From the IMG/VR virus record IMGVR_UViG_3300043015_002491, positions 1 to 64,000 of that record: a DNA stretch of 64,000 nucleotides, one strand, 5' to 3'. This document shows, piece by piece, positions 15,135 through 58,903 of this stretch. The translations under genes and the position numbers were made by a program. Numbering within the stretch: the stretch's first letter is position 1; each line of letters starts with the position of its first letter. The notes beneath the pieces were generated by a model. The model saw nothing but the letters and a program-made list of their open reading frames with translations, was not told where the DNA came from and did no database searches. The DNA comes from a virus.

Positions 15135-15191
15135 CAGAATGCGCTTTTATATTTACCCAAAAAATAGTTTAAATTTTGCTGAATGCATTCT
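15135..15191 (-). ncRNA. CAGCAA-family small RNA with Pro(TGG) anticodon stem-loop
   Basis: AGAATGC-ATTCAGCAA...TATTT-TTTGGGT-AAATA...GCATTCTG. Confidence 0.7.
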
Positions 15192-15195
15192 TTAG

Positions 15196-15269
15196 CTACC
15201 CAGGGAGGCCTCGAACCTCCAAATTCCACATTCAAAGTGTGGTGACTTTGCCAATTTGTCTACTGGGCA
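15196..15269 (-). tRNA. tRNA-Gln(TTG)
   Basis: CCACA-CTTTGAA-TGTGG. Confidence 0.88.
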
Positions 15270-15323
15270 ATAATGATTTTTTGTATCCTTTACCAAGAAA
15301 GCTTAAAATCTAACAGCATTATG

Positions 15324-15419
15324 TCTGGGGAATGGGATTCGAACCCATGGCAGACACTACCCTTGTGCCCGCACCACGTCCCAAGCGTGGCCACTTCAAC
15401 CTTACTCGTGCATCCCCAG
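15324..15419 (-). tRNA. tRNA-Pro(TGG) with 8-bp variable arm
   Basis: CCACG-CTTGGGA-CGTGG; variable stem GCGGGCAC/GTGTCTGC. Confidence 0.8.
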
Positions 15420-15430
15420 TTTAATTATAG

Positions 15431-15505
15431 TCGGATAGACTGGACTCGAACCAGCACAATGTCCTCATCCCAAATGAGGCGAGATACCAATTTCTCTACT
15501 ACCCG
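15431..15505 (-). tRNA. tRNA-Pro(TGG)
   Basis: CTCA-TTTGGGA-TGAG. Confidence 0.9.
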
Positions 15506-15568
15506 ATTAATTCTCAATACGTCAATGAACATTCTGATTATTTAATCTCTATCAGAAAAAAAGAGCAT

Positions 15569-15602
15569 AAAAAAACCCGTCTCAGTTTTCCTGGACGGGT
15601 TT
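15569..15602 (-). terminator. attenuator terminator of tRNA operon 1
   Basis: AAACCCGTCCAG-GAAAA-CTGAGACGGG-T7; 5' arm complementary to GGCGGGTTT (15664-15672) in the leader ORF. Confidence 0.85.
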
Positions 15603-15626
15603 CTATATCTTTTGAACCTTATGTGA

Positions 15627-15734
15627 TTACAATGTAGTTAAATCACTTTCAGTTAAACATAGCAAACCCGCCACACTCGGCTTCCCGCCTTGCGTATACT
15701 GTTTCGGTTGATATGTCGTAACTGTTAAGTTCAT
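15627..15734 (-). CDS. leader peptide 1 (MNLTVTTYQPKQYTQGGKPSVAGLLCLTESDLTTL)
   Basis: 35 aa ORF between promoter and terminator; codons 6-19 all T/Y/Q/P/K/G. Confidence 0.85.
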   Translation of the reverse strand: MNLTVTTYQPKQYTQGGKPSVAGLLCLTESDLTTL

Positions 15735-15784
15735 TTTTTCTATTTTTTAAATTATTAAATTTGTTCGTTTAATTTATATATATG

Positions 15785-15816
15785 CAAATATATGGTAAAA
15801 GTTTCAATTTGTCAAG
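15785..15816 (-). promoter_or_regulatory. Bacteroidota-type sigma-A promoter, tRNA operon 1
   Basis: CTTGAC...GAAACTTT...TATATTTG (-33/-7 TAnnTTTG); near-identical at four loci. Confidence 0.8.
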
Positions 15817-15870
15817 TATTTTTCAAAATATTTTTAAACTTTTTTATATGTGCTTGATAATCAAGTATTT

Positions 15871-16269
15871 TTATAAATTATTTTTATCCCTAGCTTTTAT
15901 CTCATCCCTAATCTTAGCTGCATCTTCATATCTTTCTTCTTCAATAGCGATTGCAAGTCTATCTTCTAGAGATATTTTCTTTTTAGTTTTAGGTGTGAAG
16001 CCAGTATCAAGTGGTGAATGAATCATTTCAACCTTAACTATTGAACCATGTTCTGTTTCCCAAACACTTCTTTTGAATTTATAACCATTCTCTTCAAATT
16101 CAGTAACTTCATTAGGTTCACCTAATTCACTTTCATATGGATTAGTAGTGTCATCATTTAATTCACTAAAGTCATTTAACTTATTTATTAAATCTCTCAT
16201 ACCTTTTAAGGGGTCATTTGATTTCTTCCCAAAGAAGTCATCAAATAAATCATCAAAATCATTAAACAT
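15871..16269 (-). CDS. UVR (UvrB/C) domain protein
   Basis: C-terminal LAIAIEEERYEDAAKIRDEI; likely start MFNDFDD. Confidence 0.7.
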   Translation of the reverse strand: MFNDFDDLFDDFFGKKSNDPLKGMRDLINKLNDFSELNDDTTNPYESELGEPNEVTEFEENGYKFKRSVWETEHGSIVKVEMIHSPLDTGFTPKTKKKISLEDRLAIAIEEERYEDAAKIRDEIKARDKNNL

Positions 16270-16952
16270 AATATTATTTTTTATTTTTGTTATACGATTA
16301 ATTGTACAAAATAGATACCATTTATTTTTTTCTGCCAATATGTCTGTATCTATATCTAATAGATGTCAAAAGATACCTAAATGGATTAATTTTAAGTAAA
16401 TAGAAATATAGTCCAAATAATGAAACTGATAATAGGTAAAAAATAGAAGTGGTAATTACATAGGAATCTCCTGTCGCTTTTAAAACCATGTAAAAAAGGG
16501 CATCGTACCCTAATGGGTTCATAAACATCGCCATCATTAGAACGATTGTGGCTATTTTCTTTCTGTTTACTACCCTCATCATCCATATTGTTTAAACTTT
16601 GTGTTACCATATTATTAAAATAAGCTAGTTTGATTTGGAAGCATGTTCTTCCAATATTCAAGCTGCTCATCAAGCTTCTTAATCTTTTTGTTAATAGAAG
16701 CCCTTTCTCTTACTAATTGCTTTCTAGCTTCAGTAAGTTCTCTTAATTTATTGTTAATATCGTCTTGACTGATTGTATTATTCTCAGCTAAGATGTTTAA
16801 CTTTTCTTTAATCTTCTTTTTCATATTATATAAATATGAGCATCTTGGTTTAAATACAAAAAAGTTAAGGCCAGTGGCTACCATTCTAGATGGAGTTCGG
16901 AGATTACTATTTCACACTTAGGACCCTAAGACCTTAACCTTTATATTATTAG

Positions 16953-17022
16953 TAGTACTGCTGGGATTCGAACCCAGGTCTCCCCCTCAACGGGAGCGTC
17001 TTGACCGCTACACCACAGTACG
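16953..17022 (-). tRNA. atypical tRNA-like gene (loop GTTGAGG, nominal TGA)
   Basis: T arm CTGGG-TTCGAAT-CCCAG and acceptor GTACTG/CAGTAC; non-canonical anticodon loop. Confidence 0.55.
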
Positions 17023-17107
17023 ACTCTAAGGGAGCGACCCCTAGAGTAAGGAATGTTAGATACTAAGCTTTGGGAGCGACCCATCGCATCATACCCACTA
17101 CCCCTAG

Positions 17108-17232
17108 TCGGAAGGGCTAGATTCGAACTAGCATCAAGTGGTTCCCATAGCTTTTAAATTGCTGAACTTAACCTTTTAAAACAGATTAATCTTTTTGCAT
17201 TACCACCGCCTCACCAGTTGGGCTACCTTCCG
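17108..17232 (-). ncRNA. tRNA body with anticodon loop replaced by ~60-nt CAGCAA module
   Basis: acceptor CGGAAGG/CCTTCCG, D and T arms intact; GTGGT/ACCAC stem encloses TTAATCTG-TTTTAAA-AGGTTAAGTTCAGCAA. Confidence 0.7.
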
Positions 17233-17277
17233 TTTAAAAGGAAGTGTTGTTAAAACGTTTTACCGCACCATTAATAT

Positions 17278-17340
17278 CAGAGTGACTTTTACGTAAATCA
17301 AATTAAAAGTTTGAGCGTTAAAAATTGCTGAAATCACTCT
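17278..17340 (-). ncRNA. CAGCAA-family small RNA with Lys(TTT) anticodon stem-loop
   Basis: AGAGTGA-TTTCAGCAA...TCAAA-CTTTTAA-TTTGA...TCACTCTG. Confidence 0.7.
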
Positions 17341-17364
17341 TTATATTCCTAATATTTTTGATAT

Positions 17365-17482
17365 CAGAATGGGACTTAATACGTGCTCTACCAATTGAGC
17401 TACTTGCCCAGAAGGACAAGGCTGGACTCGAACCAACAACAACGAGCTTAACAGGCTAAAATTTAATTGCTGTAGCCATTCT
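17365..17482 (-). ncRNA. CAGCAA-family RNA with circularly permuted tRNA(Asn)-like module (YrlA-like)
   Basis: AGAATGG-CTACAGCAA, AGC-CTGTTAA-GCT, T arm, acceptor closed by loop (CTTGTCC-TTCT-GGGCAAG), D arm, CCATTCTG. Confidence 0.8.
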
Positions 17483-17746
17483 TTATATATCTTATCTAAT
17501 CTCTCAAAGAACTATGGTACAAACTTACAACTTATTTTTTAATTATGCAAGTTTTTTTTTTATTTTTTTTTAAGATTTTTATTACCCTTTGTATGGATAG
17601 GGTCAAAAGGGCAATGCCTACAACCACTCCCACAACATATAGACCTACGTTTTAAGTAGGATTCTGTATATATTATTTTGCCATTCTCTAAATAATAATC
17701 TTTACCTTCTTCAAATCTAAAATCACTCATATTAATTAATATTTAG

Positions 17747-17819
17747 TGGAGCCACCGATACTCGAAATCGGAACTGCTGGTTGCAAACCAACTATTATCA
17801 CCACTTTAACTATGGCCCC
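17747..17819 (-). tRNA. tRNA-Ala(TGC)
   Basis: loop TTTGCAA; GGGGCCA/TGGCTCC with G3:U70. Confidence 0.88.
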
Positions 17820-17953
17820 AGTTTTGTTAGATTTCGTACCGTTATCACACTTCAGTACAAGTCACTTTCAATTTATCTAACACACTTCCTATGCTGGCTA
17901 ACTGGGTTATTTAAGCGAAATACGCCCCCAGCGCCTTTATGTGACACCGTTAG

Positions 17954-18030
17954 CGGTCTAGGAGGGTTTCGAACCCTCGTTTTAGAGCAGAGACAGTGCA
18001 ATTCCCCCCACCATGGGGGCTTACTAGACC
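17954..18030 (-). tRNA. tRNA-Asp(GTC), divergent copy
   Basis: loop CTGTCTC; acceptor GGTCTAG/CTAGACC; unusual D arm. Confidence 0.65.
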
Positions 18031-18085
18031 GTGCACTAACTAAGGGGGATGATTAAGCCCCAATCAATTGTCGTAGTTAGTAAAG

Positions 18086-18158
18086 CGGACGTGACGGGAG
18101 TTGAACCCGCTCCGAACTGCGTGACAGGCAGACATCTTAACCGTTTGACCTCACGTCC
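18086..18158 (-). tRNA. tRNA-Asp(GTC)
   Basis: CTGC-CTGTCAC-GCAG. Confidence 0.85.
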
Positions 18159-18232
18159 GTAATTGATAGTCTTTCCTATCAGTCATACTCAAAACTCCCA
18201 CTGGTCGTAACTCCAGTTATAGAGAGCGTTTG

Positions 18233-18317
18233 TAATGCGGACGGGGTTCGAACCCGCAATACCCAAGAGGGTCCAGATTGAAAGTCTGGTCGCTTAAACC
18301 AATTTGCATACCGCATC
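18233..18317 (-). tRNA. tRNA-Glu(TTC) with long variable arm
   Basis: CCAGA-CTTTCAA-TCTGG; variable arm ACCC-TCTT-GGGT. Confidence 0.8.
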
Positions 18318-18322
18318 ATATG

Positions 18323-18396
18323 TAACCCAGACGGGGCTCGAACCCGCAATCTCCACAGTGAAAGTGTGACGACTTAACCAGTTTGTCCACTGGGTC
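18323..18396 (-). tRNA. tRNA-Glu(TTC)
   Basis: CACA-CTTTCAC-TGTG. Confidence 0.88.
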
Positions 18397-18431
18397 AAAT
18401 TAAACCAAAATGTCAAAGAACTATTCTTTTG

Positions 18432-18503
18432 TGCGACCCCTCAGATTCGAACTGAGACCTCCTGGGCTTCAACCAGGCGAGCTACCATTAACTCCAGAGC
18501 CAC
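18432..18503 (-). tRNA. tRNA-Phe(GAA)
   Basis: CCTGG-TTGAAGC-CCAGG. Confidence 0.85.
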
Positions 18504-18513
18504 ATATGGGCAT

Positions 18514-18544
18514 AAAAAAAGGCCCTCCGTTTCGGGAGAGCCTT
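18514..18544 (-). terminator. attenuator terminator of tRNA operon 2
   Basis: AAGGCTCTCCCG-AAA-CGGAGGGCC-T7; 5' arm complementary to GGGAGAGTC (18594-18602) in the leader ORF. Confidence 0.85.
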
Positions 18545-18574
18545 CTTATCTAAGCTTTTATGTTTTTATAACAT

Positions 18575-18667
18575 TTAACTTATGACAATACTTGACTCTC
18601 CCAGGCTAAAATCGGCCTCAGCAAACGCTTCAAAAGCAAAATCAAATATGTTGTTAAATGTTCTCAT
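18575..18667 (-). CDS. leader peptide 2 (MRTFNNIFDFAFEAFAEADFSLGESSIVIS)
   Basis: 30 aa ORF; codons 8-20 all F/D/A/E. Confidence 0.85.
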   Translation of the reverse strand: MRTFNNIFDFAFEAFAEADFSLGESSIVIS

Positions 18668-18716
18668 TATTTCTATTTTTTAAATATTAAATTTTTTTGT
18701 TTTAATTATATATATG

Positions 18717-18748
18717 CAAATATAGGTCTAAAGTTTCAAAAAAGCAAG
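18717..18748 (-). promoter_or_regulatory. sigma-A promoter, tRNA operon 2
   Basis: CTTGC...GAAACTTT...TATATTTG. Confidence 0.8.
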
Positions 18749-18793
18749 TATTTTTACAAATTATTTTTAAAATTTTTTTTAATTACTTCATTA

Positions 18794-19738
18794 TCAACGA
18801 TTTAATTTTTTTACTCCTCTACCAAATAATTCAGATTCTTTTTCTCTTCTAGATTTTAGACCTGGATGTTTCTCAAATGATTTTTCACTAGTAGTCTTTA
18901 TTTTTTCTTTAGCCTTTTCATATTCACCCCTTTTAACTAATTGTATAAAGTCAGAGTTTCTAAAACCACTTCTACCCATATTAAAAGCCATAGATACCAT
19001 AGCATCATACATATCTTGGTTGATTGTATATTTAATACCTTTCTTGTCCCAACGTGATAAAACATCATTAATAACCTTTTCAGCATAAGCTAAATCATTT
19101 TTAAATAACTCTTCAGCAGTTTCTCTAGAAATTACTTGACCTAATTTAAACTTAGACCTTCTAATTTTTTCAGCATGCCCCCAACCAATTGTGATTGCAC
19201 CATCACCAAGTTTATAAGCTTTAAGTACTGGTTCACCCTTATGTTTTATACTACCTTCTTCATACTTAAGGTGATTTATTAAATTTTGTGATGCTTTAGT
19301 AGGTTTAGCTACTCTATTGTCTAATTCTTTATTAACTTGATTTTCTTTTTCACTACTAACTCTTTTAACTGGCGTTGAAGTTTCTATTGATGTTAATATA
19401 TCTTGTTTTATATCTGGCGCATTAGCACTTAATAACGAACTAACCGTGTTTAATGATAATAAACCCATTAAACTAATACTCACATATTTTACCATTTTTT
19501 TTCTAAACCCAGATGGGATATTTTTGGTCTTATTTAATAAAACTTCTAAGAATCTTTCACCTTGTGTTGGTGAATGAATGGTTGACATGGTTTTTTCAAG
19601 TTGATTTTTTGTTAAATCCCATTCAAATGTTCTAGACTCTTCTTCGTTTTCACATATTAGTATTAAATCATTTAAACTATTTTCAAATAACCTAGTTTCT
19701 AATTCTTCTCTTAACAAATTTTCTATTAGATGTTTCAT
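18794..19738 (-). CDS. phage lysozyme (GH24) with N-terminal extension
   Basis: EEG..AYK.GDGAITIGWGH, DAMVSMAFNMG and GLKSRREKESELF; likely start MKHLIENLLRE. Confidence 0.88.
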   Translation of the reverse strand: MKHLIENLLREELETRLFENSLNDLILICENEEESRTFEWDLTKNQLEKTMSTIHSPTQGERFLEVLLNKTKNIPSGFRKKMVKYVSISLMGLLSLNTVSSLLSANAPDIKQDILTSIETSTPVKRVSSEKENQVNKELDNRVAKPTKASQNLINHLKYEEGSIKHKGEPVLKAYKLGDGAITIGWGHAEKIRRSKFKLGQVISRETAEELFKNDLAYAEKVINDVLSRWDKKGIKYTINQDMYDAMVSMAFNMGRSGFRNSDFIQLVKRGEYEKAKEKIKTTSEKSFEKHPGLKSRREKESELFGRGVKKLNR

Positions 19739-19792
19739 ATTATATAAATATAACCCAACCATTCAAAAATTGTATAGTACCTTAATTTTTAG

Positions 19793-19874
19793 TGACCCTG
19801 GTGAGACTCGAACTCACACGCCTTTCGGCAGAGGCTTCTTAGACCCCCCTGTATACCAATTCCAGCACAGAGCC
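19793..19874 (-). tRNA. tRNA-Leu(AAG)
   Basis: GGGGT-CTAAGAA-GCCTC; Leu-type D loop and variable arm. Confidence 0.8.
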
Positions 19875-19879
19875 ATAAA

Positions 19880-19963
19880 CAGGTTGAGTTTTACGGGATT
19901 GAACCGCTTCGTTTTGTTTTGCAGACAAAATTTTAACCATTTAAAGTTTGCTGTACTCAACCT
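19880..19963 (-). ncRNA. CAGCAA-family RNA with Cys(GCA) anticodon arm and T-arm remnant
   Basis: AGGTTGAG-TACAGCAA...TTTGT-CTGCAAA-ACAAA..GCGG-TTCAATC-CCGT..CTCAACCTG. Confidence 0.75.
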
Positions 19964-19967
19964 TTAG

Positions 19968-20056
19968 TACGGAGGGCGGGATTCGAACCCGCAGATGTAT
20001 CTTACGTGTGCCGTGGGGTCTAAGCCCACCGACTTTACCAGTTTGTCCACCTCCGC
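19968..20056 (-). tRNA. tRNA-Leu(TAG)
   Basis: GTGGG-CTTAGAC-CCCAC; long variable arm. Confidence 0.82.
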
Positions 20057-20061
20057 ATTTG

Positions 20062-20144
20062 TACTCCCGCCCAGACTCGAACTGGGATTTACTTCACGTC
20101 TCTTCCATGTAAAAGAAGGATGTTACCAATTACACCACAGGAGC
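20062..20144 (-). tRNA. tRNA-Val(TAC), variant with expanded variable region
   Basis: loop TTTACAT. Confidence 0.7.
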
Positions 20145-20150
20145 ATTTTG

Positions 20151-20240
20151 TAGCGGGAGCTGGATTCGAACCAGCGAAATCAGATTCACTCTGCCTCTGG
20201 GTTATGAGCCCAGCGAGCCGACCAACTGCTCTACCCCGCA
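20151..20240 (-). tRNA. tRNA-Met(CAT), initiator-like, long variable arm
   Basis: CTGGG-CTCATAA-CCCAG (three G-C pairs); 1:72 mismatch. Confidence 0.8.
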
Positions 20241-20247
20241 ATATTAG

Positions 20248-20438
20248 TTGCCACGGTAGGAATCGAACCTACTGCCTCTCCCCTATGAACGGGAGCGAGC
20301 TTTGAACAAATTTAACAAACTCCAAACTATTCATGTTTAACCAGAAGTCCCCTTAACATGTGTCGGTTATTCCATATTAAACAATCCAAGCCCTTTTAAA
20401 ATTAAACCTTGGCATGTTCTCCAATGCTCTACGTGACT
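20248..20438 (-). tRNA. tRNA-like gene (CAT) with >100-nt insertion in the D-loop
   Basis: acceptor GTCACG/CGTGGC; D stem GAGC/GCTC separated by a long insert; intact T arm. Confidence 0.6.
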
Positions 20439-20449
20439 AAGTTTAGCCG

Positions 20450-20535
20450 TAGCCAGAGTGGGACTCGAACCCACACGCCCCTTTCGGAGCAAGGGATTTT
20501 AAGTCCCTCGTGTCTACCAATTCCACCATCTGGCC
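20450..20535 (-). tRNA. tRNA-Leu(TAA)
   Basis: AGGGA-CTTAAAA-TCCCT. Confidence 0.92.
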
Positions 20536-20559
20536 ATATTTTCAAAGAACACTTTGTTG

Positions 20560-20635
20560 TTGGGATAGAGGGATTCGAACCCCCGACCTTCTCGGTGTAA
20601 ACGAGACGCTACTGAACCAACTGAGCTATATCCCA
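20560..20635 (-). tRNA. tRNA-Val(TAC)
   Basis: CTCG-TTTACAC-CGAG. Confidence 0.9.
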
Positions 20636-21398
20636 ATGTGCTAGGTTTTACCCTAGCTTTATAAATCTTTCATTTTTGATGGCTTTACTTATCCATCTTG
20701 CTAATTCAGAACCTCTGATTTTAGCATCAAATGTAGTTGTACCTAAATCTGAAGATAACTTTAGCGTTTGTATTTCTTCTCTTTCAAACGAATCAGTTTC
20801 AATTACTTCTTCAACTGTTGCTATTGGGAATTGATATAATTCGTCCATAATCACAACATTGTAATATAAATTACCAGCAATATAGTGACTAAATGTAGCC
20901 ATATTCTTAGACTTCATTAAGTCTTTTTTTATTTCTATTTCATTAAACATAACCATTCTCTTTTTTCCATTTTTCATGCATCATATTAATCGTATGGTAA
21001 GGACTTCCTTTACCTTCAATAATTTCTTCGAACCCATTTTCTTTAGTAATAAGAGATTCTCCATATTCAATAGTACCCTTAAATTTACTACCATAACTAC
21101 TAGATTGAAGTGTTTTTGTTGCTGGGTCTACATCACCCCAAGAACTTCTCCATCCTCTAGGTTTAAGATACTCAATAAAATATTGTTTACCTGTTTCTGG
21201 ATAAAATACCACTTCTCTTCCAGTTTCATCTCTGTTCACTAAGAACTCTTGCCTACTAATTGTTTTCATTTTTTCTTTTTTAAAAACCTTGTTATTATCA
21301 TTAACCAATTAACATTATTTTTTTGTCCCTTAGTTAATCTTTCTCTTGTTCCTTCTAAATTACCTCTTAAAATTTCTTTTACCATTTTATTTTTTTAG

Positions 21399-21469
21399 AG
21401 GCGGGAGAGGGAATCGAACCCCCGTAAAAGCTTTTGCAGAGCTCCACCTAACCACTCGGTCATCCCGCC
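21399..21469 (-). tRNA. tRNA-Cys(GCA)
   Basis: AGCT-CTGCAAA-AGCT; U73. Confidence 0.88.
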
Positions 21470-21485
21470 ATTAATTTTTAAACAT

Positions 21486-21519
21486 AAAAAAAGTCCGACT
21501 CGTTTTACTGAATCGGACT
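21486..21519 (-). terminator. attenuator terminator of tRNA operon 3
   Basis: AGTCCGATTC-AGTAAAAC-GAGTCGGAC-T7; 5' arm complementary to GGTCGGACT (21560-21568). Confidence 0.85.
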
Positions 21520-21545
21520 CTCTGTTTATCTTATTTTTATTCAAG

Positions 21546-21626
21546 TTAAGACACAACACAGTCCGACCAGTTTACCACTAGTAAACATAAGTTAAGGACT
21601 AATAATATGTTGTTTCTTGTAATCAT
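21546..21626 (-). CDS. leader peptide 3 (MITRNNILLVLNLCLLVVNWSDCVVS)
   Basis: 26 aa ORF; 10 of codons 8-18 are L/V/C. Confidence 0.82.
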   Translation of the reverse strand: MITRNNILLVLNLCLLVVNWSDCVVS

Positions 21627-21656
21627 TGAATTTTTCTTTGTTTTTAAATATATATG

Positions 21657-26131: not shown

Positions 26132-26132
26132 A

Positions 26133-36884: not shown

Positions 36885-36951
36885 CAGGATGGTTTTTTTA
36901 CGTAATCAAATTAGAAGTTTGGTCGTTAAAAATATTTGCTGAACCCATCCT
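36885..36951 (-). ncRNA. CAGCAA-family small RNA with Arg(TCT) anticodon stem-loop
   Basis: AGGATGG-GTTCAGCAA...CAAA-CTTCTAA-TTTG...CCATCCTG. Confidence 0.7.
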
Positions 36952-37208: not shown

Positions 37209-37216
37209 ATATTAAG

Positions 37217-37286
37217 TACCGACTGTGAGGTTCGAACTCACTTAACCGTCCATATGAAGGACTGTTCTTTTCCACTAAGTGTCGGC
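37217..37286 (-). tRNA. short tRNA-Met(CAT)-like with reduced D arm
   Basis: GTCC-TTCATAT-GGAC; T arm present. Confidence 0.6.
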
Positions 37287-37317
37287 ATGTCGCTACTATT
37301 CGACCTATCAATATTTG

Positions 37318-37523: not shown

Positions 37524-37613
37524 TACTGGTGGTGAGATTCGAACTCACGTTTGGTAACAACCTCAAGAACCGCTACGTTTCTCCAAGATATAAGCTTGGG
37601 ACGCTACACCAGC
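37524..37613 (-). ncRNA. tRNA-like RNA with Ile(TAT) anticodon hairpin displaced into the D-arm position
   Basis: acceptor GCTGGTG/CACCAGT; T arm GTGAG-TTCGAAT-CTCAC; CCAAG-CTTATAT-CTTGG inside the GCGT/ACGT stem. Confidence 0.55.
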
Positions 37614-37692
37614 ATTTGTAGAGTAGGTGGGGTATTCTCCCACAATAAAGGGTCATAGTCCAGCGGTTTGTAGTTTGAACCTACTATTCTAG

Positions 37693-37778
37693 TTGGTAGG
37701 GTGGGACTCGAACCCACATTGTGCTTTCGCACCCAGTGTATCAGACTGGTCCCTGTAAACCAATTCGGGTACCTACCA
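37693..37778 (-). tRNA. tRNA-Ile(GAT) with long variable arm
   Basis: CCAGT-CTGATAC-ACTGG; variable arm GTGC-GAAA-GCAC. Confidence 0.8.
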
Positions 37779-37875: not shown

Positions 37876-37884
37876 GAATAAAGT

Positions 37885-37969
37885 ACCCCATTGTAGGATT
37901 CGAACCTACGGTCCCCTAAAGGGACACCCGTTACACACGGGTCGCATTAAGCCACTCTGCCAAATGGGT
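37885..37969 (-). tRNA. Ser-like tRNA body with anticodon loop TGTGTAA
   Basis: GGCAGAGTGGCTTAATGCG D arm and long variable arm; ACCCG-TGTGTAA-CGGGT (G33). Confidence 0.6.
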
Positions 37970-37976
37970 CACTTTG

Positions 37977-46687: not shown

Positions 46688-47175
46688 TGGGGGAAATCAA
46701 AAGGATTCTTCTTAACACCTTTAACATTTGGATTAATTACGGATTCGAACCGTTATTACCTTACTACCGATACTCCTAAGCGGTTAACTTAAGATTCTTC
46801 TCCACCATTTGACCTTGAAGCGGTCTTCCTACCTAGTACCGTGCCTTAACCCACTAATCAAAGGTTTATTAGGCTACAAGATGGGATTTATTTATTCACC
46901 CATAAGTAAGGTTACAAGTAGATATTTACATCTAGCTGTACCATTCAAATGCTCTAACGATAACTAGATTGTTAGCAACAATCATTGGCTACTCAGTCGC
47001 TTACTCCCCGAAGGAAGCTTGCACCTACGTTTTCACTATAATTGCTGTAGTTTACTCTCGGAAGATTTTCCATTGAGTATCCCACCACAGGAATCGTTAA
47101 CTCTTATCACCCTTGTAAATAGTGATTATTCGAGCATAATTATACATGCAAACTGTACAGGTTCACATGCCCCCA
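46688..47175 (-). ncRNA. large (~490 nt) structured ncRNA candidate
   Basis: no long ORF; GC above background; ends TGGGGG/CCCCCA pair; many hairpins; CGGTTCGAATCCG T-loop. Confidence 0.6.
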
Positions 47176-47189: not shown

Positions 47190-47314
47190 CAGAATAGTGA
47201 TTTAGAATGATTAACATGGTCTAGACACATGGTTGTTTTTTGTTACTCAACAAGAGGACAATTTCTAAAACCTCTCTCTCTCTTTCTTAAAGAACTAATC
47301 GCTGTAACTATTCT
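47190..47314 (-). ncRNA. CAGCAA-family RNA variant (ACAGCGA)
   Basis: AGAATAGT-TACAGCGA...ACTATTCTG. Confidence 0.55.
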
Positions 47315-49805: not shown

Positions 49806-49853
49806 CAGAATCGTTTTATTTTGCAGATAAATATTCATTGCTGAACCGATTCT
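49806..49853 (-). ncRNA. minimal CAGCAA-family RNA with Cys(GCA) anticodon stem-loop
   Basis: AGAATCG-GTTCAGCAA..TTTAT-CTGCAAA-ATAAA-ACGATTCTG. Confidence 0.7.
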
Positions 49854-49968
49854 TAAACAACTATGAAAGACAGAAAAACATTTGGTGCGGTGGAGACGAC
49901 TTAACATCTTATTCTTAAGAATGGAAGAACCATATTTATATGGAAAACTTAAGAACCACCACATGTTG

Positions 49969-50803
49969 TAGCGGGGGAGGGAATCGAAAATGAACTTTCC
50001 CCACTCTCACATATATTTATGTTATATAACATAATATTTTAAATCTTCTATAATGAAACCTTTATACACTGAAACCGAATTTGAAAATGCAAAATCAACT
50101 GATAAATTACCTTGCGAATGTTACCATTGTGGTAAGAGATTCACGGCAATGAAAAAATCAATAAAGCAAGAAATCAAACATAAAAGAGGTAGAATAAAAT
50201 TCTGTTCTCAAACTTGTAACTCAGCAAATCAAAAAACTAGTAAACTGGTTAAATGTGATAACTGCGGAACAGAGTTCTTGAAAAAACCTAACCAAATCAC
50301 TAAATCTAAGAATAACTTCTGTTCTAGGTCTTGTAACACATCTTATAATAACAAGAATAAGACTTGGGGTACTAGACGTTCCAAACTTGAAATTTGGTTA
50401 GAAGAACAATTAAGCATTCTATACCCAAATTTACATATTGATTATAATAAACCAAATGCGATTGGGTCTGAATTAGATATTCACATACCTTCTCTTAACT
50501 TAGCAATCGAATTAAATGGTATATTTCACTATGAACCTATATATGGTGTAGATAAACTACAAAAGATTCAAGAGAATGACCATTCTAAATCAAAAGCATG
50601 CCATGATAATCAAATCGATTTATGTGTTATCGATACTTCTGGTCAGAAATACTTTAAACCAAAGTCATCACAGAAGTATCTTGATATCATCACTAATATT
50701 CTCAATGAACGCTTATCAACTTCCTAGTCACCAAAAATGGTGTGCAACAGTCACTACGTGCAAGTGAGTTGATTTCGACTGTCTAGCGGGGGAGGGAATC
50801 GAA
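49969..50803 (+). mobile_element. endonuclease cassette inserted at tRNA-Met 3' end
   Basis: 20-bp direct repeat TAGCGGGGGAGGGAATCGAA at 49969-49988 and 50784-50803. Confidence 0.65.
50053..50727 (+). CDS. putative homing endonuclease (zinc-binding repeats plus Vsr/DUF559-like domain)
   Basis: CxxC..FCSxxC repeats; SKLE..ELDI..LAIELNGIFHY. Confidence 0.75.
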   Translation: MKPLYTETEFENAKSTDKLPCECYHCGKRFTAMKKSIKQEIKHKRGRIKFCSQTCNSANQKTSKLVKCDNCGTEFLKKPNQITKSKNNFCSRSCNTSYNNKNKTWGTRRSKLEIWLEEQLSILYPNLHIDYNKPNAIGSELDIHIPSLNLAIELNGIFHYEPIYGVDKLQKIQENDHSKSKACHDNQIDLCVIDTSGQKYFKPKSSQKYLDIITNILNERLSTS

Positions 50804-50855
50804 CCCCCGACCTCAAGGTTATGAGCCTTGCGAGCTACCTCTGCTCTACCCCGCA
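50784..50855 (-). tRNA. tRNA-Met(CAT), initiator-like
   Basis: CAAGG-CTCATAA-CCTTG; 1:72 mismatch. Confidence 0.9.
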
Positions 50856-50962
50856 ATATTAGTTCTTCGACTAGGACTTTCACCTAAAGATACTACTTAC
50901 GTTAGTATTCGAAGAATTGTACTTAAACGTTATTCCAAAATTCAGTACCAATATTTTAATAT

Positions 50963-51022
50963 CAGAATGGTATCTTTACAATAAATATTCAAAATTTAAC
51001 TTTAACTTGCTGTAACCATTCT
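50963..51022 (-). ncRNA. CAGCAA-family small RNA (possible Ser TGA loop)
   Basis: AGAATGGT-TACAGCAA...TAAAT-TTTGAAT-ATTTA...ACCATTCTG. Confidence 0.65.
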
Positions 51023-53679: not shown

Positions 53680-54426
53680 TTATTTCTTGTTTGTTACAAT
53701 ACCATCAATGATACCATACTCTAGAGCTTCGTCAGCTGTAAGCCAATTATCTCTATTACAATCTGCTAATACTTGTGCGACATCCTTACCACAATAATCA
53801 GCAAGCATACCAAATAATTTATCATTATACTTGATAGCTTCAGCAATACTAATTCTCATATCTTCTACGTGACCTTGAGCCCCAGCAGATACTTGATGTA
53901 ACATTACCTTAGAACTTGGTAGAGAATATCTTTTACCCTTAGTTCCAGCACCTAATAGGATTGAACCCATCGATGCGGCCATACCAGTATTAATTGTTTG
54001 AATATCTGAACTAACATAATTCATAACATCAACCATTGATAAACCAGATTTAACTGAACCACCTGGTGAGTCAACATGCATTGTAATCGTCTTACCTGGT
54101 TCTAAGTTATCTAAGAACATTAACTGTGCTTGAACAACTGTACTCATTTGGTCATTAACTGGACCAGCAACCCAAAGAATCCTATCCATCATAAGTCTTG
54201 AGAAGATATCCATTTGAGTTACTCTCATTTCTCTTTCTTCCAAGATGTATGGTGTAAGACTTCCACTTACTTGAGTGTTATTGTATATAGTAGCTTGTAA
54301 GTTCTCCCAATAATGGAATTGAATACTACTAATCCCCATATGCTTTGTAGCATAATCTTTAAATTCACTATAAAAATCTAACATATTATTCTTCGTTTGT
54401 ATAAATAAAGACTGGGGTATATTCAC
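53680..54426 (-). CDS. clpP: ATP-dependent Clp protease proteolytic subunit
   Basis: DIFSRLMMDRI, DSPGGSV, GMAASMGS and MLHQ; true start probably M at ~54384. Confidence 0.95.
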   Translation of the reverse strand: MNIPQSLFIQTKNNMLDFYSEFKDYATKHMGISSIQFHYWENLQATIYNNTQVSGSLTPYILEEREMRVTQMDIFSRLMMDRILWVAGPVNDQMSTVVQAQLMFLDNLEPGKTITMHVDSPGGSVKSGLSMVDVMNYVSSDIQTINTGMAASMGSILLGAGTKGKRYSLPSSKVMLHQVSAGAQGHVEDMRISIAEAIKYNDKLFGMLADYCGKDVAQVLADCNRDNWLTADEALEYGIIDGIVTNKK

Positions 54427-55346
54427 CCATCCAAGACCCTATTATATTATATTGGAAATATTCCATAGCTTCTTCATATGTCATATCATCACGTTCAACT
54501 AGTATTTCCAAAATCTTTTCTACACTATAAGCAGCAACTGGACCTAAATTAATCCTTTCAGCAACACCTATGATGGCTTCATCGAAACCATCACAGATTA
54601 ATGCTTCTTCGTTGTATTCTGCAACTTCTTCTGGAGTCATTATACTTCAGCTTCTTCTTTCTCTACTTGGTATAATGTTTTGATAGATTCACGAACAACT
54701 TCGTATCTTTCATAACCATACTTAGAAAGTAATCCAGAGAATGTTTCGATATCACCCTTCTTAATTTCTAACTTGTCTTTTTCTGTATCAAAATACACAC
54801 CAGCTAAGGCTTCTTCCGCTACGATTACTTTTTGCCAATCCTCTAATTGTTCAAAGATTTGTTCATTAACAAAAATGTATAAGTCATTTTTTGTTTCAAA
54901 CTTTAACAATGGATTTGCTTTAACAACCTTAGTGATTGTTTTACATTTGTTGTCAGAAAGTAACTTGATATTTACATATCTGTCCAATTCTGCGTTTGCG
55001 ATTACACCATCAAAAATCTCTTGTGTGTCATCAAATGGTTCTTCATACTTTGCCATAAAAATTTAATTTATATTGATTATTAATTAATTTACTTCATTAA
55101 ATGTGCTATAAAACTTATAATAAGACCGATACCTATAATAACTAAACCTAACGCTAAAGGAATCCATAATGGAGATGTTACCCACCACCAAGACCAATTA
55201 GCTACTTGACCAATCTCGGCCAATTTCATGACTAGGAATACAATGAAAATAAATCCACCTAAACCTATACCATTACTTGTCACTTTTTCTTTACTCATAT
55301 CATTTAATTTTTAACAAATATATAAACTTTATTATTTATATGCAAG

Positions 55347-56372
55347 TTATTTTTTAATATTTTTTAATTTTTCTATTACCTCTTTTTCTGAATCACTTAA
55401 CTCAGTTGGCATTTCGATATCTAAAATAATCATCATATCACCTCTAATATTTGTATTATATTTAAACAAACCTTTATTAACTACCCTTAAATTATCACCA
55501 ATTTTGCTATATTCTGGTACTGTAACCCTAATTTTACCACCGTCAATAGTTGGTACTTCCACTTTATCACCTAAGACTAACTGAGGATAACTTAATTTAA
55601 GGTTATACTTCAAGTTATCACCATTTCTAATAAAATTATCATTGTTATTGACAAATAATTTAATTAGAAGTCTACCAGGTGTGCCTTGTTTAACACCATG
55701 ACCCATACCAACATATTCCATTGTATCACCATCCTTAACACCCTTTGGGATTGTCACTTCAACCGTTTCTTCTTTATTAATTGTACCATTACCATGACAT
55801 GTACCACATATATTTTCAACAACTGAACCACTACCACCGCATTGGTCACAATCGATAACTTGTCTCATTTGACCTAGAGGTGTGTTAATAACATTCATTA
55901 TACTACCATTACCTTTACACTTAGGACAAGTTTTTTTACCCGTTCCACCATCAGAATTACAAGTCATACATGGCGCATTTCTCCTATATTTAAATTTCTT
56001 AGTGACACCGTTAAAAACTTCTTCTAATGAAATTCTTACATTTATAACTAAATCATGACCTCGACTTTGCTCTCGTTTAGTAAACGGATTCCTACCACCA
56101 CCAAAACCAAATTCACGCATTATATCTTCCATAGATTGACTACCAAATGGATTACCACCCCTAGGGTCAGCTGAACCAAACCTATCATAATTAGTTCTTT
56201 TGTTAGAATCACTTAATACATCATAAGCTTCAGCAATATCTTTAAATTTTTCTTCACCATCTGGGTTTACGTCTGGGTGATACTTTTTAGATAACTTTCT
56301 ATAAGCTTTTTTAATGTCCGATTCTGTGGCGTTTTTTTCAACACCCAATATTCCATAATAATCTTTACTCAT
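55347..56372 (-). CDS. dnaJ: DnaJ chaperone
   Basis: J domain with HPD; four CxxCxGxG-type repeats; C-terminal domain. Confidence 0.95.
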
Positions 56373-56405
56373 CTATTTATTTTTTTACAAATATAGCTAT
56401 AATTA

Positions 56406-57071
56406 TTGAATATGTACAGGGTAATACTCACTAAAAACGGAAAATATAAGCAAACACTTCATAGATGTAAAACTATGGAGACATCTTTTATTAACTATAA
56501 TAGATTTATTGAGGAAAATAAGACAGTATTATTCCCAAGGAAACATATAAATTATAACGGAATTAAATCGGTTGAATATCGCATTTATGTTGTTAAAGAC
56601 ACTGAAGAAGGTGATGAGTTTAGAATACTCAGAGATAAAATGGGTAGGACTTATGAAGAGCAGCCATTATTTGGAATTTGGACAGTTTTGGCTGACCATG
56701 AATATGAAATTGAGGAAACATTTTGGATGTTTGGTAAAGACCCTAAGTATGATAGGGTTACTATACATGATATCGCAAAACCAATGATGGAAGGTGCTTA
56801 TAAACAAAAAATGACAAAACAAATAATTATTGTACATAATAAATTAGTCTTACATAATGAAGAACAATTCGAAATGATTATTTGTAAGAATAAACTTGAT
56901 GCTCAAAGACTCCATCATACCCTACATAAGGCTTGTAAAAAGAATAAAATAAAGAGTGTTATATTCATGGGTACAGCTAGTCCAGCTACCGTATCAAGAA
57001 TGTATGAATTAATTCAAGAAAAGACTGGGTGGCCAATTGAAAAAGTGCGTAGGACTTCTACTCGCCCTTAA
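56406..57071 (+). CDS. hypothetical protein
   Basis: 221 aa plus-strand ORF divergent from dnaJ. Confidence 0.65.
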   Translation: MNMYRVILTKNGKYKQTLHRCKTMETSFINYNRFIEENKTVLFPRKHINYNGIKSVEYRIYVVKDTEEGDEFRILRDKMGRTYEEQPLFGIWTVLADHEYEIEETFWMFGKDPKYDRVTIHDIAKPMMEGAYKQKMTKQIIIVHNKLVLHNEEQFEMIICKNKLDAQRLHHTLHKACKKNKIKSVIFMGTASPATVSRMYELIQEKTGWPIEKVRRTSTRP

Positions 57072-57492
57072 AAGACTTCAAAAATTCAATCTTTTTATGT
57101 TTAGGTTGCTTTTTAACCTTATTTTCTAATTTAAGAGCTTCAGATTTGCTTTCTACTGCACGATAAGCTTCTAATATTACAGGTAACCTACCTCTGGTAT
57201 ATTTCGCTCCATTGCCGCTTCTATGGGCTTCTAAACGTTTAATTATGTTATTAGTCATGCCACAATATAGTGTTCCATCAGCACATCTAAGTATGTAAAC
57301 ACACCAGGTTGGTTCGTAGCCATCTAAAAACTGAACAGCATCAGATTCAAGTAGCATAGCCATATTCATCTTAGGGTTACCCTTACCAATACCTTCTAAC
57401 AAACCAAGTTCGTTCCATTTATTGATAATTTCTTCACGCATTTTTTTTAAGCGTTTTATCCCGTCACTATTAGTATTTAATAATCTACTCAT
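57058..57492 (-). CDS. GIY-YIG nuclease (UPF0213-like) with N-terminal extension
   Basis: VYILRCADGTLYCGMTNN..RL..H..G.GAKYTRGR. Confidence 0.85.
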   Translation of the reverse strand: MSRLLNTNSDGIKRLKKMREEIINKWNELGLLEGIGKGNPKMNMAMLLESDAVQFLDGYEPTWCVYILRCADGTLYCGMTNNIIKRLEAHRSGNGAKYTRGRLPVILEAYRAVESKSEALKLENKVKKQPKHKKIEFLKSFKGE

Positions 57493-57964
57493 ATTAAACC
57501 TTGCTCATCTTGAAGGTAATCTTCAAGGTTCTTTATTATTCTTGTTAAATCCTTATAATCTTGACTTTCTTTACCACCGTCTTTTAGTTCAACTAAAAGC
57601 TCTTCTACACGATATAAAAGAGCTAGTAATTGGTGTTCTCTATGATTAGTCCTCTCTCCCCCCATCAGTTTCGATTTCAGATTCTGGTGAATCCTTACCT
57701 TCATCAGCACCTTGACCTATATCAAAGTTCTTAGTAAGGTCTTCAACAATTTTATTTATTCTTTCCATATCAGCTTCAGCAACTTGTACTGGGTTGATAC
57801 ATTCAATTCTTTCTTCACCATCCGTTGGTATAAAGAAAGCCATTGCGTTTGCTTTTTTTTGAACTAAAGCATCATTCACTGAGTTAGCGAATGGTTGTAT
57901 AATATCTGGATTCATCATCATTTCTCTATCCAAATAAAATACTAAATAAGTTGTTTGTTCGTTT

Positions 57965-58387
57965 TTACTCATTATTACTATTATTATTACTATTATTATT
58001 ACTATTATTATATTTTTCCCTAGCCCTAGAACTAATCATTTCTGGGTCACCATCTTCATCGAGTCTAACAAATACAAGTGTATTATTAGCTATTAATTTT
58101 TGTTCCCCAGAATAAGGGTTGTGTCTCCTAACTTCTATTTCGATAGTCACTGAAGTTCTACCTAATTTAACCACTTCACCGTAAATTTTTACGATTCGGT
58201 TAACCTTAACCTTTTTATTAAATGAGACCTCACCAAATTTAGCTGTAACCACTCTTGGTGTGTCAGCAGCTTCAGCTGCCAAGATTCCCCCAGCTTCATC
58301 CATCCAACCTAGTAACTTACCACCGAAAAGATTTCCATGTGTTCCTAAGTCAGATTCCTTAACAATTCTTGATGTTATTAGTTCCAT
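57965..58387 (-). CDS. acyl-CoA thioesterase (second copy)
   Basis: DLGTHGNLFGGKLLGWMDE and GRTS. Confidence 0.85.
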   Translation of the reverse strand: MELITSRIVKESDLGTHGNLFGGKLLGWMDEAGGILAAEAADTPRVVTAKFGEVSFNKKVKVNRIVKIYGEVVKLGRTSVTIEIEVRRHNPYSGEQKLIANNTLVFVRLDEDGDPEMISSRAREKYNNSNNNSNNNSNNE

Positions 58388-58733
58388 TATTGTTTTATAT
58401 ATTCTTCGTAACTAACTTCTTCTACATGTTCAAGTAAATTAGTTTTATTATTCACCCAGTCACTTGGAGTGAAGTATTCGGCTAATAAATTGTTAATAGT
58501 TTCTTCTTTTTCATTTTTAGAAACTATACTCGCTTTCAATGGATTTCCATTGTCATCAACCAAATACACTATTGATTCAGACTCATCTTTTTTAATTACT
58601 TTTGTAATAATTTTCATCATTTATCTTTTAAACCTTATTATTTAATTATAACTTAAATCTAACTAAAAAAAATGAAAGTGTAAAGCATAAAAAAGGTTTA
58701 TATGAAAAAATCACATAAACCTTTTAATTTTAT

Positions 58734-58903
58734 CGGAATGCGGGAGCGTTTACTTCAGAGCTCTGTAATGAAGGTTGTTTTTTATAGTACACATCCTAAG
58801 TTTTTTAGTGTACCAAATAGGTGCTAACAACTTTAAAAACACCACCTTTCAACTGTACTTAATATAAATCTAATTTGTTAAAAAGTTTGCAGTATGCATT
58901 CCT
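58734..58903 (-). ncRNA. CAGCAA-family RNA variant (ACTGCAA) directly downstream of the DUF2828 gene
   Basis: GGAATGC-ATACTGCAA...GCATTCCG; begins a few nt after the stop codon. Confidence 0.6.

Follow-up and report, generated by a model that had tools for sequence, protein, structure and literature searches.

Results

Ten RNA elements that share a handle

We analysed a window of 64,000 nucleotides (nt) comprising positions 1 to 64,000 of the IMG/VR virus record IMGVR_UViG_3300043015_002491, which are the opening 64 kb of a giant-phage contig of 122.5 kb with an estimated completeness of 35%. Ten elements in this window share a common handle, a short stem with an adjoining WCAGCAA motif, and differ in the cargo that the handle carries. 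They are probably small noncoding RNAs of one modular family, which would partner the Ro60-like DUF2828 protein encoded in the same window and display anticodon arms as candidate decoys.

The initial annotation, made from the letters of the sequence, had listed ten copies, and all ten were found at the coordinates it gave; these are the low ends of the elements, which all lie on the minus strand. We refer to them as copies A to J in order of position. Reading of the minus strand and pairing tests likewise bore out a shared stem and WCAGCAA motif with variants, the stems differing in sequence yet covarying. Nine of the ten copies consist of a 7-bp stem strand (consensus AGAATGG), N-U, WCAGCAA, the cargo, the complementary strand and a G. 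The 5' stem strands, all of which pair, are AGAATGC, AGAGTGA, AGAATGG (twice), AGGTTGA, AGGATGG, AGAATAG, AGAATCG and GGAATGC. N-U-WCAGCAA follows directly on the 5' stem strand in eight of the ten copies, with the variants ACAGCGA in copy G and ACTGCAA in copy J. All nine open copies have a short stem joining their ends, in which the 5' G pairs with the C of the 3' C-U-G; the tenth, copy B, is circularly permuted. Five copies (A, C, F, H and I) measure 48-67 nt, and the other five, with tRNA-like or larger cargo, 84-169 nt.

Such a family is far commoner than chance predicts. The WCAGCAA motif occurs 30 times, against 14.1 +/- 3.7 in shuffled sequences, and none of 100 shuffles reached 30. 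A strict scan for a 7-bp stem, NN, NCNGCRA, the complementary strand and G found nine matches on the minus strand of the 122.5-kb record and two on the plus strand. Taking the 5' motif alone as the start, we found a complementary 7-mer plus G downstream of 8 of 21 minus-strand candidates, whereas the controls gave one such case upstream and none when the stem was reversed or shuffled. The closed, permuted handle occurs once on the minus strand (copy B) and never on the plus strand. A relaxed scan gave no additional convincing copy, and the copies are confined to 15-59 kb, with none in the remaining 58 kb of the record. Covariation is seen in the handle, pseudoknot and anticodon-like stems.

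Handle RNAs accompany DUF2828 genes in phages

The gene for a DUF2828/DUF7788 protein of 483 amino acids (aa) lies at 58910-60361 on the minus strand. Copy J (58734-58902, minus strand; handle GGAATGC/GCATTCC with AT-ACTGCAA) starts 8 nt after its stop codon, and its cargo of 145 nt ends in a conserved pseudoknot that adjoins the 3' handle strand. A terminator-like hairpin (58691-58725, minus strand), 9 nt past copy J, closes the unit formed by the DUF2828 gene and copy J. On the same strand, copies I, H and G lie 8-11.6 kb and copies A to F 22-44 kb downstream of the gene.

The initial annotation had proposed covariance models and a co-occurrence analysis with DUF2828 genes, and these revealed a tight and specific linkage across phages, bacteria and an archaeal metagenome-assembled genome (MAG). 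We gathered 76 loci with DUF2828 homologues (32-80% identity), 68 of which had enough flanking sequence. At least 42 of these 68 related phage loci have a handle that starts no more than 150 nt after the DUF2828 stop codon, and about a dozen further related loci show, by eye, a handle with an imperfect stem. The J-type RNAs of the related loci share the 3' pseudoknot, both helices of which covary (alignment A3). Over 1.26 Mb around phage DUF2828 genes, the strict scan returned 130 matches on the strand of the gene and 9 on the opposite strand. A covariance model built from 43 short copies (R1) matched 26 of 29 DUF2828-bearing records, with the most matches (seven) in the phage studied here. 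Copy I was the top match of R1 (56 bits), and copy A scored 51.4 bits; copy E reached 32.5 bits (E-value 5.9e-5) although outside the training set of the model, and copy G had an E-value of 0.008.

A viral collection was also scanned with a 17-letter handle pattern. Among the matches listed, most were chance rows and 9 of 80 loci had a paired handle; eight of these nine were credible, in six contigs, four of which carry DUF2828. The other two contigs are fragments estimated to be 4% and 15% complete.

Handle RNAs also stand beside the DUF2828 gene in cultured Felixounavirus, Listeria and mycobacterial phages. In the Escherichia phages wV8 and adrianh they lie next to the gene and inside the tRNA array. 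Listeria phage LP-083-2 has three handle RNAs by its DUF2828 gene, with RtcB 1.3 kb away, and Mycobacterium phage Snenia has three copies by the gene, one of them YrlA-like and one with a Ser loop.

Some of these phage loci showed further features. About 650 nt upstream of the handle RNAs and DUF2828 gene of LP-083-2 (L354:1471-2022) there is a sub-threshold match to ROOL RNA (RF03087; 87.4 bits, gathering score 99.1, E-value 3.8e-16). The complete 380-kb relative G001 (record L012) has two DUF2828 genes (75536-76243 and 308557-309243), and a J-type RNA was seen adjoining only the first of them. In locus L013, the first 60 nt past the DUF2828 stop codon hold a bare hairpin of the two handle strands in place of the J-type RNA, without CAGCAA motif or cargo, which looks like a deletion remnant.

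The same pairing in bacteria and archaea

Scanning prokaryotic genomes, one per species, with a profile yielded 79 loci with DUF2828 homologues (35-53% identity), among them loci from Ruminococcus, Clostridia, Treponema, Chloroflexi, Saccharibacteria and an Asgard MAG. Over the 509 kb around these 79 genes, the strict scan gave 208 matches on the gene strand versus 25 on the opposite strand. Upstream of DUF2828, over 1.5 kb, handles occurred at 1.60 per kb, compared to 0.11 in coding sequence and 0.08 elsewhere. Adjacent copies, one to ten in number, are present at 63 of the 79 loci, and tandem arrays with differing cargo reach ten copies. A test that presupposes no motif gave ACAGCAA as the most enriched 7-mer upstream of DUF2828 (134 occurrences where 9.1 were expected; present at 56 of 79 loci); GGTTCGA, a word of the tRNA T-loop, was likewise enriched there. 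RtcB lies within 3 kb in 19 of the 79 loci, and RlaP and WYL regulators are also neighbours. The arrangement of DUF2828, handle RNAs and RtcB is the layout known for rsr-Y RNA-rtcB operons. The handle system is a widespread feature of DUF2828 RNA-repair loci, often beside RtcB, and is not peculiar to this phage.

A second covariance model (R2), trained exclusively on 48 bacterial copies, was run on 121 genomes of the bacterial family containing Ruminococcus flavefaciens ND2009, five of which are DUF2828-positive. It matched four of the five positives, each time 100-500 nt upstream of the gene, and none of the 116 negatives (Fisher p 5.9e-7); the informative part of this comparison is the lack of matches in the negatives, since the positives may overlap the training loci of the model. 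R2 also finds copies I (40.5 bits, its top match), A (39.7 bits), F and C of the window, as well as copies in phages wV8, adrianh, LP-083-2 and Snenia.

One of the arrays holds a member of a different RNA family. In a MAG contig labelled Micavibrio (L276:1007-1068), a freshwater-1 RNA (RF02979; 82.7 bits, exceeding its gathering score) is embedded among the handle RNAs and tRNAs arrayed upstream of the DUF2828 gene.

The DUF2828 protein is predicted to be Ro60-like

DUF2828 is a large protein family that to our knowledge has no assigned function. The product of the 58910-60361 open reading frame (ORF) matches the Pfam families DUF7788 (5.9e-49) and DUF2828 (7.6e-33), with no TROVE match. An AlphaFold2 model based on 28 homologues (mean predicted local distance difference test score 83.1, predicted template modelling score 0.79) suggests a Ro60-like ring of HEAT repeats joined to a vWA domain. 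A Foldseek search of this model against the Protein Data Bank (PDB) returned Ro60/TROVE structures as all of the top 13 matches (E-values 5e-9 to 1e-4; 506-583 aligned columns), from Thermus phage phiLo, Xenopus, human and Deinococcus, followed by vWA domains. The link to Ro60 rests on this predicted fold, because a profile of the 28 homologues run against PDB sequences retrieved TROVE chains only at an E-value of 0.52, which is not significant. On that footing, the model lends support to the DUF2828-vWA protein as the Ro-type candidate, a role in which the initial annotation had cast it, and we propose it as the binder of the handle. Residues D279, S281 and S283 (D-x-S-x-S) are invariant in the 28 homologues and presumably form the metal site of the vWA domain.

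PADLOC and NCBIfam searches gave no match for the protein. Its homologues occur in 711 of 50,697 GenBank phage records, where they are annotated as RNA-binding, vWFA or Ro-like proteins, and a protein homologue search returned more than 7,900 clusters. No dictyostelid DUF2828 protein was among the matches listed, which in the homologue search were close phage-like relatives and in the protein atlas viral clusters only.

The cargo is made of tRNA parts

We counted as anticodon-like any 7-nt Y-U-NNN-R loop on a hairpin of at least 4 bp, T-loops excluded, and took the expectation from shuffled cargo. Such loops are present in seven of the nine open copies of the window (0.4 expected), in 9 of 69 elements of related phages (1.4 expected) and in 52 of 175 elements of genome contigs (6.0 expected), an enrichment of 6- to 17-fold; the Lys UUU loop is the commonest in both the related phages and the genome contigs. 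The statement in the initial annotation that the cargo usually is an anticodon-like loop is hence true of this window, while the two larger sets show enrichment without universality. By eye, five of the loops (Lys, Asn, Cys twice and Arg) are identical to loops of the phage's own tRNAs. Together with the conservation described below, the enrichment suggests that the cargo has likely been selected as a mimic of the anticodon arm.

The simplest cargo, in copies A, C, F and H, is a 4-5 bp hairpin with a 7-nt loop. Copy A (15135-15191, minus strand), between tRNA-Gln and tRNA-Tyr, has the handle AGAATGC/GCATTCT and a 5-bp hairpin with the Pro-like loop TTTGGGT. Copy C (17278-17340, minus strand; handle AGAGTGA/TCACTCT) displays the Lys UUU loop CTTTTAA and copy F (36885-36951, minus strand; handle AGGATGG/CCATCCT) the Arg UCU loop CTTCTAA; the latter is one loop base apart from the Lys-type copy of the relative G003. 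Copy H (49806-49853, minus strand; handle AGAATCG/CGATTCT) carries the Cys GCA loop CTGCAAA in only 48 nt. In copy I (50963-51022, minus strand; handle AGAATGG/CCATTCT with TT-ACAGCAA), the hairpin is weak and its loop, TTTGAAT, is Ser-like.

Larger parts of tRNAs appear in three copies. Copy E (19880-19963, minus strand), between two tRNA-Leu genes, has a handle of 7-9 bp (AGGTTGA) that encloses a hairpin with the Cys GCA loop CTGCAAA and a T-arm-like hairpin. Copy D (17365-17482, minus strand; handle AGAATGG/CCATTCT) contains a permuted tRNA-like domain in the order T arm, acceptor hairpin closed by a short loop, and D arm. A 3-bp hairpin just upstream, with the Asn GUU loop CTGTTAA, stacks on two closing pairs and so completes an anticodon arm. 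Copy B (17108-17232, minus strand) is the circularly permuted member: its tRNA-like body is in normal order (acceptor, D arm, T arm), and a closed handle hairpin followed by GT-TCAGCAA takes the place of the anticodon loop, so that the stem strands are joined by a loop and the ends of the cargo are free. Its minimum free energy fold is cloverleaf-like, with the handle hairpin within the anticodon stem. Copy G (47190-47314, minus strand; handle AGAATAG/CTATTCT) lies downstream of a Band_7 gene and has a cargo of 100 nt, a promoter-like site of its own at 47391-47363 and a terminator-like site at 47637-47606.

Copies in phage tRNA arrays are spaced 3-5 nt from the flanking tRNAs. The initial annotation had further placed the Pro copy, one Cys copy and the Arg copy in the operons of the matching tRNAs. 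This is true only in part: copy F begins 3 nt past tRNA-Arg(TCT), copy A is 130-240 nt after two tRNA-Pro genes, and copy E is separated from tRNA-Cys by about 1.4 kb and two ORFs.

Several loops are retained in relatives. A Lys-loop copy has been kept at the same slot of the tRNA array, with tRNA-Gln (or Pro) on one side and tRNA-Tyr (or Gln) on the other, in five relatives (G002, G003, G005, G010/G011 and G013). E-type copies between Leu tRNAs have the loops CTTAAAA or TTTCAAC, and D-type orthologues have Asn, Arg(CCU) or Ser(GCU) loops, with handle flanks in G002, G010, G020 and G021. Thirteen hand-picked copies of the Lys/Arg type, taken from phages and from five bacterial lineages, were aligned. 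CAGCAA and the loop, together with its closing A, are the sole conserved parts of this alignment, and all five stem pairs vary on both sides.

Other readings of these structures were considered and rejected. The copies do not qualify as armless minimal tRNAs, the same handle also bearing cargo without an anticodon arm and occurring far from tRNA genes. Trans-splicing of anticodon arms into the body of copy B was discarded as the handles of different copies are not mutually complementary. A second helix between handle and cargo, proposed by eye, was inconsistent across copies.

Comparison with known RNA families

No family of Rfam 15 reaches its threshold on any of the ten copies. A comparison with the bacterial Y RNA family YrlA (RF02553), suggested at the outset, gave a specific but sub-threshold match in one of the ten: the tRNA-like core of copy D aligns to model positions 24-84 of 114, with 42.3 bits (gathering score 69) and an E-value of 6e-7 in 7.2 kb. 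The resemblance extends to genomic context and architecture. In both cases the RNA gene is beside, and on the same strand as, a gene for a protein with a Ro60 fold (predicted here; copy J lies 8 nt past the DUF2828 stop codon, well within the 4 kb taken as the limit), often in an RtcB repair operon, and the RNA ends pair into a stem with a short unpaired motif. Copy D and the RNAs of loci L338 and L353 also share with YrlA the order T arm, closed acceptor hairpin and D arm. The differences are nonetheless considerable. The protein here is DUF2828/DUF7788 and not Pfam TROVE; most handle copies bear an anticodon arm alone or no tRNA part; the Ro-binding stem of YrlA occupies the place of the anticodon loop of the handle RNAs; and up to ten copies are found per genome. 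The motif close to the YrlA 5' end is GNCGAAN0-1G (PMC4201824), as opposed to WCAGCAA here, and the phages in Table S2 of Chen et al. carry canonical TROVE proteins (PMC4201824).

YrlA is not the nearest known RNA when handle architecture is the measure; the closest described RNA is the Class I RNA of Dictyostelium (RF01414). Its consensus opens with a 6-bp end-joining stem whose first base is G, continues with C-UUACAGCAA and a variable interior, and closes with the complementary strand and U-G; this is the same handle in the same register as that of copy I (stem, UU, ACAGCAA ... C-U-G). Class I RNAs are 42-65 nt long and have a 3' CUGU; a stem joins their ends, and an 11-nt motif adjoins its 5' strand (Kjellin et al. 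2021, PMC7919456). The conserved 11-nt motif (core UUACAGCAA) lies immediately 3' of the 5' stem strand, as does N-U-WCAGCAA here. The many dispersed genes per genome, the variable interior and compensatory changes in the stem are also alike (PMC7919456), whereas length is comparable for the five window copies of 48-67 nt and greater for the five of 84-169 nt.

In 22 records, RF01414 gave seven sub-threshold matches (24-30.5 bits), six of which fall on independently found handle RNAs, and none in 14 control genomes. The best of them, at 30.5 bits, does not reach the gathering score of 41.5. Among the ten copies of the window, copy A alone was matched (26.4 bits), the other nine giving no match at an E-value of 10 or below, and there was no match at an E-value of 1 or below in nine loci rich in handle RNAs. 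Class I RNAs differ in having their own DUSE promoters and a direct binder, the RRM protein Rnp1A (CIBP), and the available part of that report describes for them neither tRNA-like cargo nor a Ro-like partner (PMC7919456). They have been reported only from dictyostelids (PMC7919456). A preprint on Class I RNAs names four pull-down partners, DDB_G0281243 among them; one of the four is of unknown function.

A phage-encoded Ro60 provides a third point of comparison. The Ro60 protein of Thermus phage phiLo (PDB 9KOP and 9L5Y) is the top structural match of our model, with 15-16% sequence identity to the window protein. It binds two phage RNAs resembling Y RNAs, called Yrl1 and Yrl2, in which a terminal 5'-3' stem flanks a bulge holding the motif, here CGAA (PMC12135203). 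The phiLo RNAs differ from the handle RNAs in this CGAA motif and in lying upstream of the gene, and anticodon display is not reported for them in the part of the paper available (PMC12135203). We found no publication linking DUF2828, Class I RNAs and Ro60/Y RNA, a search that did not cover Burroughs and Aravind 2016 or Avesson et al. 2011.

Proposed mechanism

The handle, with its 6-7 bp end-joining stem, unpaired N-U-WCAGCAA and 3' C-U-G, would be the most likely docking module for the DUF2828 protein, in parallel with Y RNAs, which bind Ro60 via a terminal stem with a bulged motif. That the handle RNAs are the RNA partner of DUF2828 we regard as very likely. By analogy with Ro60/Y RNAs and the phiLo pair, the DUF2828 ring could hold the handle and leave the cargo exposed. 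The cargo appears to be assembled from tRNA parts, namely the anticodon stem-loop alone (copies A, C, F and H), the same with a T arm (E), or a whole body that is permuted (D) or in normal order (B); the particle would therefore expose a tRNA anticodon arm. The handle RNAs would be co-transcribed with tRNAs or with the DUF2828 gene and presumably be released by processing.

The genes around them suggest what such particles may do. Pfam matches in the window include a Thg1-like enzyme, a 2H phosphoesterase, RlaP and two RNA ligases (PF09414 and Rnl1), and further matches a metallophosphoesterase, a P-loop kinase, a CCA-adding enzyme and the Band_7 protein. The locus lies among tRNA repair genes (Rnl1, the second RNA ligase, kinase, phosphoesterase, Thg1-like enzyme, CCA-adding enzyme and RlaP), and in bacteria it stands beside RtcB. 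Among the tRNAs that PrrC, PARIS, colicin D and colicin E5 typically attack are those for Lys, Arg, Asn, Tyr and Asp. RNAs held by the protein could serve as bait or decoy substrates for ribonucleases that cut anticodon loops; handle and protein would keep a cut RNA together, and the neighbouring ligases could reseal it. Since the cargo seems to copy the part of the tRNA that these nucleases recognise, and the nearby genes are of the kind that seal such ends, we favour a resealable bait or decoy. Within the range of conceivable roles in tRNA damage and repair this is a tentative choice, and a role as sentinel or repair tether is the main alternative. The pairing of handle RNAs with a Ro-like gene across many phages and bacteria points to a participant, so far undescribed, in the contest between the cutting and the mending of tRNAs.

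Several observations weigh against the reading of the elements as DUF2828-bound anticodon displays. Their adjacency to DUF2828 could stem from co-transcription or cis-regulation. Sets gathered by the strict scan are forced to pair and to carry C-G-C-A, the Lys/Arg alignment has hand-picked rows, and the 121-genome comparison has the possible overlap mentioned above. Most handle RNAs outside this phage are without an anticodon-like loop (60 of 69 and 123 of 175), and the orthologues of copies H and I in the closest relative (for H, locus L009) have other loops instead. Complete relatives have few copies whatever their tRNA count, for example two copies and 8 tRNAs in G001 and one or two copies and 48 tRNAs in G004. 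The Rfam models of YrlA and Class I RNA both score below their gathering scores on every copy. Sub-threshold YrlA matches moreover occur in 9 of 14 control genomes, five of nine inspected being tandem, neighbouring tRNAs, and such a match was rejected as a detector.

Alternative explanations

The alternative that survives best, though we consider it rather unlikely, retains the particle and gives it another job: the handle RNA would tether the Ro-like ring to an enzyme, be it an exoribonuclease, a ligase (RtcB or Rnl) or one that modifies or charges tRNA, with the cargo as docking site, and the particle would degrade or repair damaged tRNA instead of serving as a decoy. DUF2828 does stand beside RtcB, RlaP and WYL genes in bacteria and among ligase, kinase and CCA-enzyme genes here. 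There is precedent in the Y RNAs that tether Ro60 to PNPase in D. radiodurans (PMC4201824) and in the ternary complexes of phiLo Ro60 with host PNPase (PMC12135203), and a role as repair platform, partnered by a tRNA-like RNA, has been proposed for the TROVE proteins of jumbo phages (PMC7824862). A tether leaves unexplained, however, why one genome should hold a panel of differing anticodon loops and why the Lys loop is kept while its stem drifts, and the minimal copies (48-63 nt) offer an anticodon arm alone for docking.

We consider it improbable that the elements are unusual tRNA genes, permuted or intron-bearing, whose transcripts are cut at the handle and ligated by RtcB or Rnl, the short copies being decayed remnants. 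Permuted and split tRNA genes occur in the red alga Cyanidioschyzon and in Nanoarchaeum. As in a permuted tRNA gene, the 3' half of copy D precedes its 5' half and the flanking sequences pair, and copy B has the same architecture in normal order. The handle also resembles a 7-bp acceptor stem plus one base. Bacterial loci contain Rfam-tRNA matches of 109-126 nt in which a closed handle is inserted in the 5' strand of the anticodon stem; these handle-bearing tRNAs share the three-dimensional plan of copy D, circularly permuted. RNA ligases are encoded near the elements. The short copies nevertheless form the most conserved and most numerous class, and, with the same kind of flank, they are incapable of yielding a tRNA. 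No bulge-helix-bulge was found at the handle junction, which is a plain 7-bp helix with a one-sided bulge, and Pfam matches of the 71 window ORFs of at least 90 aa include no splicing endonuclease family. Neither ARAGORN nor the Rfam tRNA model calls any of the ten copies (copy E gives 22.7 bits, E-value 0.36), and in copy E extra bases separate the T arm from the handle.

No better placed is the view that the handle is a cis-acting element of DUF2828 operon or tRNA-array transcripts, for instance an autoregulatory site bound by the protein or a signal for RNase processing, and not a stable trans-acting RNA. It would suit the bacterial copies, which lie on the same strand in the 1.5 kb upstream of DUF2828, and the narrow spacing of copies within phage tRNA arrays (3-5 nt). 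The phage copies, on the other hand, lie downstream of the gene, scattered as far as 45 kb from it, and promoter-like and terminator-like sites of its own accompany copy G; a leader would be expected neither to form tandem arrays, which reach ten copies with different cargo, nor to show conserved cargo. The elements could also be a repeat, a miniature mobile element or a pattern that arose by chance in AT-rich DNA between genes, and the multiple dispersed copies with terminal inverted repeats would fit. This we regard as exceedingly improbable and contradicted by the controls: the stems covary rather than being identical, the strand bias is strict, the elements are conserved across phyla beside one gene family, and shuffled and reversed-stem controls give nothing.

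Implications

The analysis extends the Ro60-Y RNA principle to what appears to be a second protein family with a different recognition motif, and to a modular RNA design whose variable part copies anticodon arms. For the DUF2828 family it offers a predicted Ro60-like fold, a setting of tRNA repair with RtcB and a probable RNA ligand, the motif of which is defined. Hosts of DUF2828 phages include laboratory organisms such as E. coli K-12 and Mycobacterium smegmatis, and the proposal amounts to a concrete, testable hypothesis on how phages and bacteria handle anticodon nucleases.

It also suggests a link to the Class I RNAs of Dictyostelium, which are abundant, of unknown mechanism and reported to be absent outside dictyostelids (PMC7919456). 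We raise as a more doubtful idea that the prokaryotic and phage handle RNAs and the Class I RNAs are one ancient family, in which the stem and UUACAGCAA dock DUF2828, a divergent Ro60, and a panel of anticodon arms, a different one on each copy, is displayed as ligase-resealable decoys or sentinels against anticodon nucleases. In that case an RNA ligand would be known for DUF2828 proteins, those from plants and fungi among them, and the Class I RNAs would acquire both an origin and a partner protein.

Genome setting and further observations

The relatives of the window are phages of 353-380 kb, three of which have terminal repeats. ARAGORN and Rfam identify 31 tRNAs and one tmRNA in the window, all on the minus strand. 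Pfam matches related to NAD are Sir2, NAMPT and Nudix. Three metatranscriptome runs contain 5-15% of the sampled words from window positions 14400-21600. Sigma-70-like TTGACA-17-TATATT sites are present in the window, and an earlier guess of Bacteroidota-type promoters was dropped on their account.

Six tRNAs for amino acids whose tRNAs are normally short-armed (Pro, Glu, Val, Met, Ile and Thr) are of a long form, measuring 84-97 nt with a variable region roughly 10-20 nt over the usual. They lie on the minus strand at 15323-15419, 18232-18317, 20061-20144, 20150-20240, 37692-37778 and 37883-37970, often beside a tRNA of normal length with the same or a similar anticodon, and long and short forms are paired likewise in the complete relative G004. 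By eye, tRNA-like sequences with a T arm and acceptor-like ends, which neither ARAGORN nor Rfam calls, are also present on the minus strand at about 17945-18060, 37215-37290 and 37525-37640.

Copies H and I flank a region that looks like an insertion which duplicated the end of a tRNA. In this region (49968-50856), a plus-strand ORF with a zinc-finger match (50053-50727) comes after tRNA-Met (50783-50856, minus strand), and beyond it the 3' end of the tRNA is repeated near 49968-50010. Finally, a structured intergenic stretch downstream of copy G (about 46690-46904, minus strand) gives a sub-threshold match to the manA RNA motif (RF01745), with 27.6 bits against a gathering score of 55.2 and an E-value of 0.0012.

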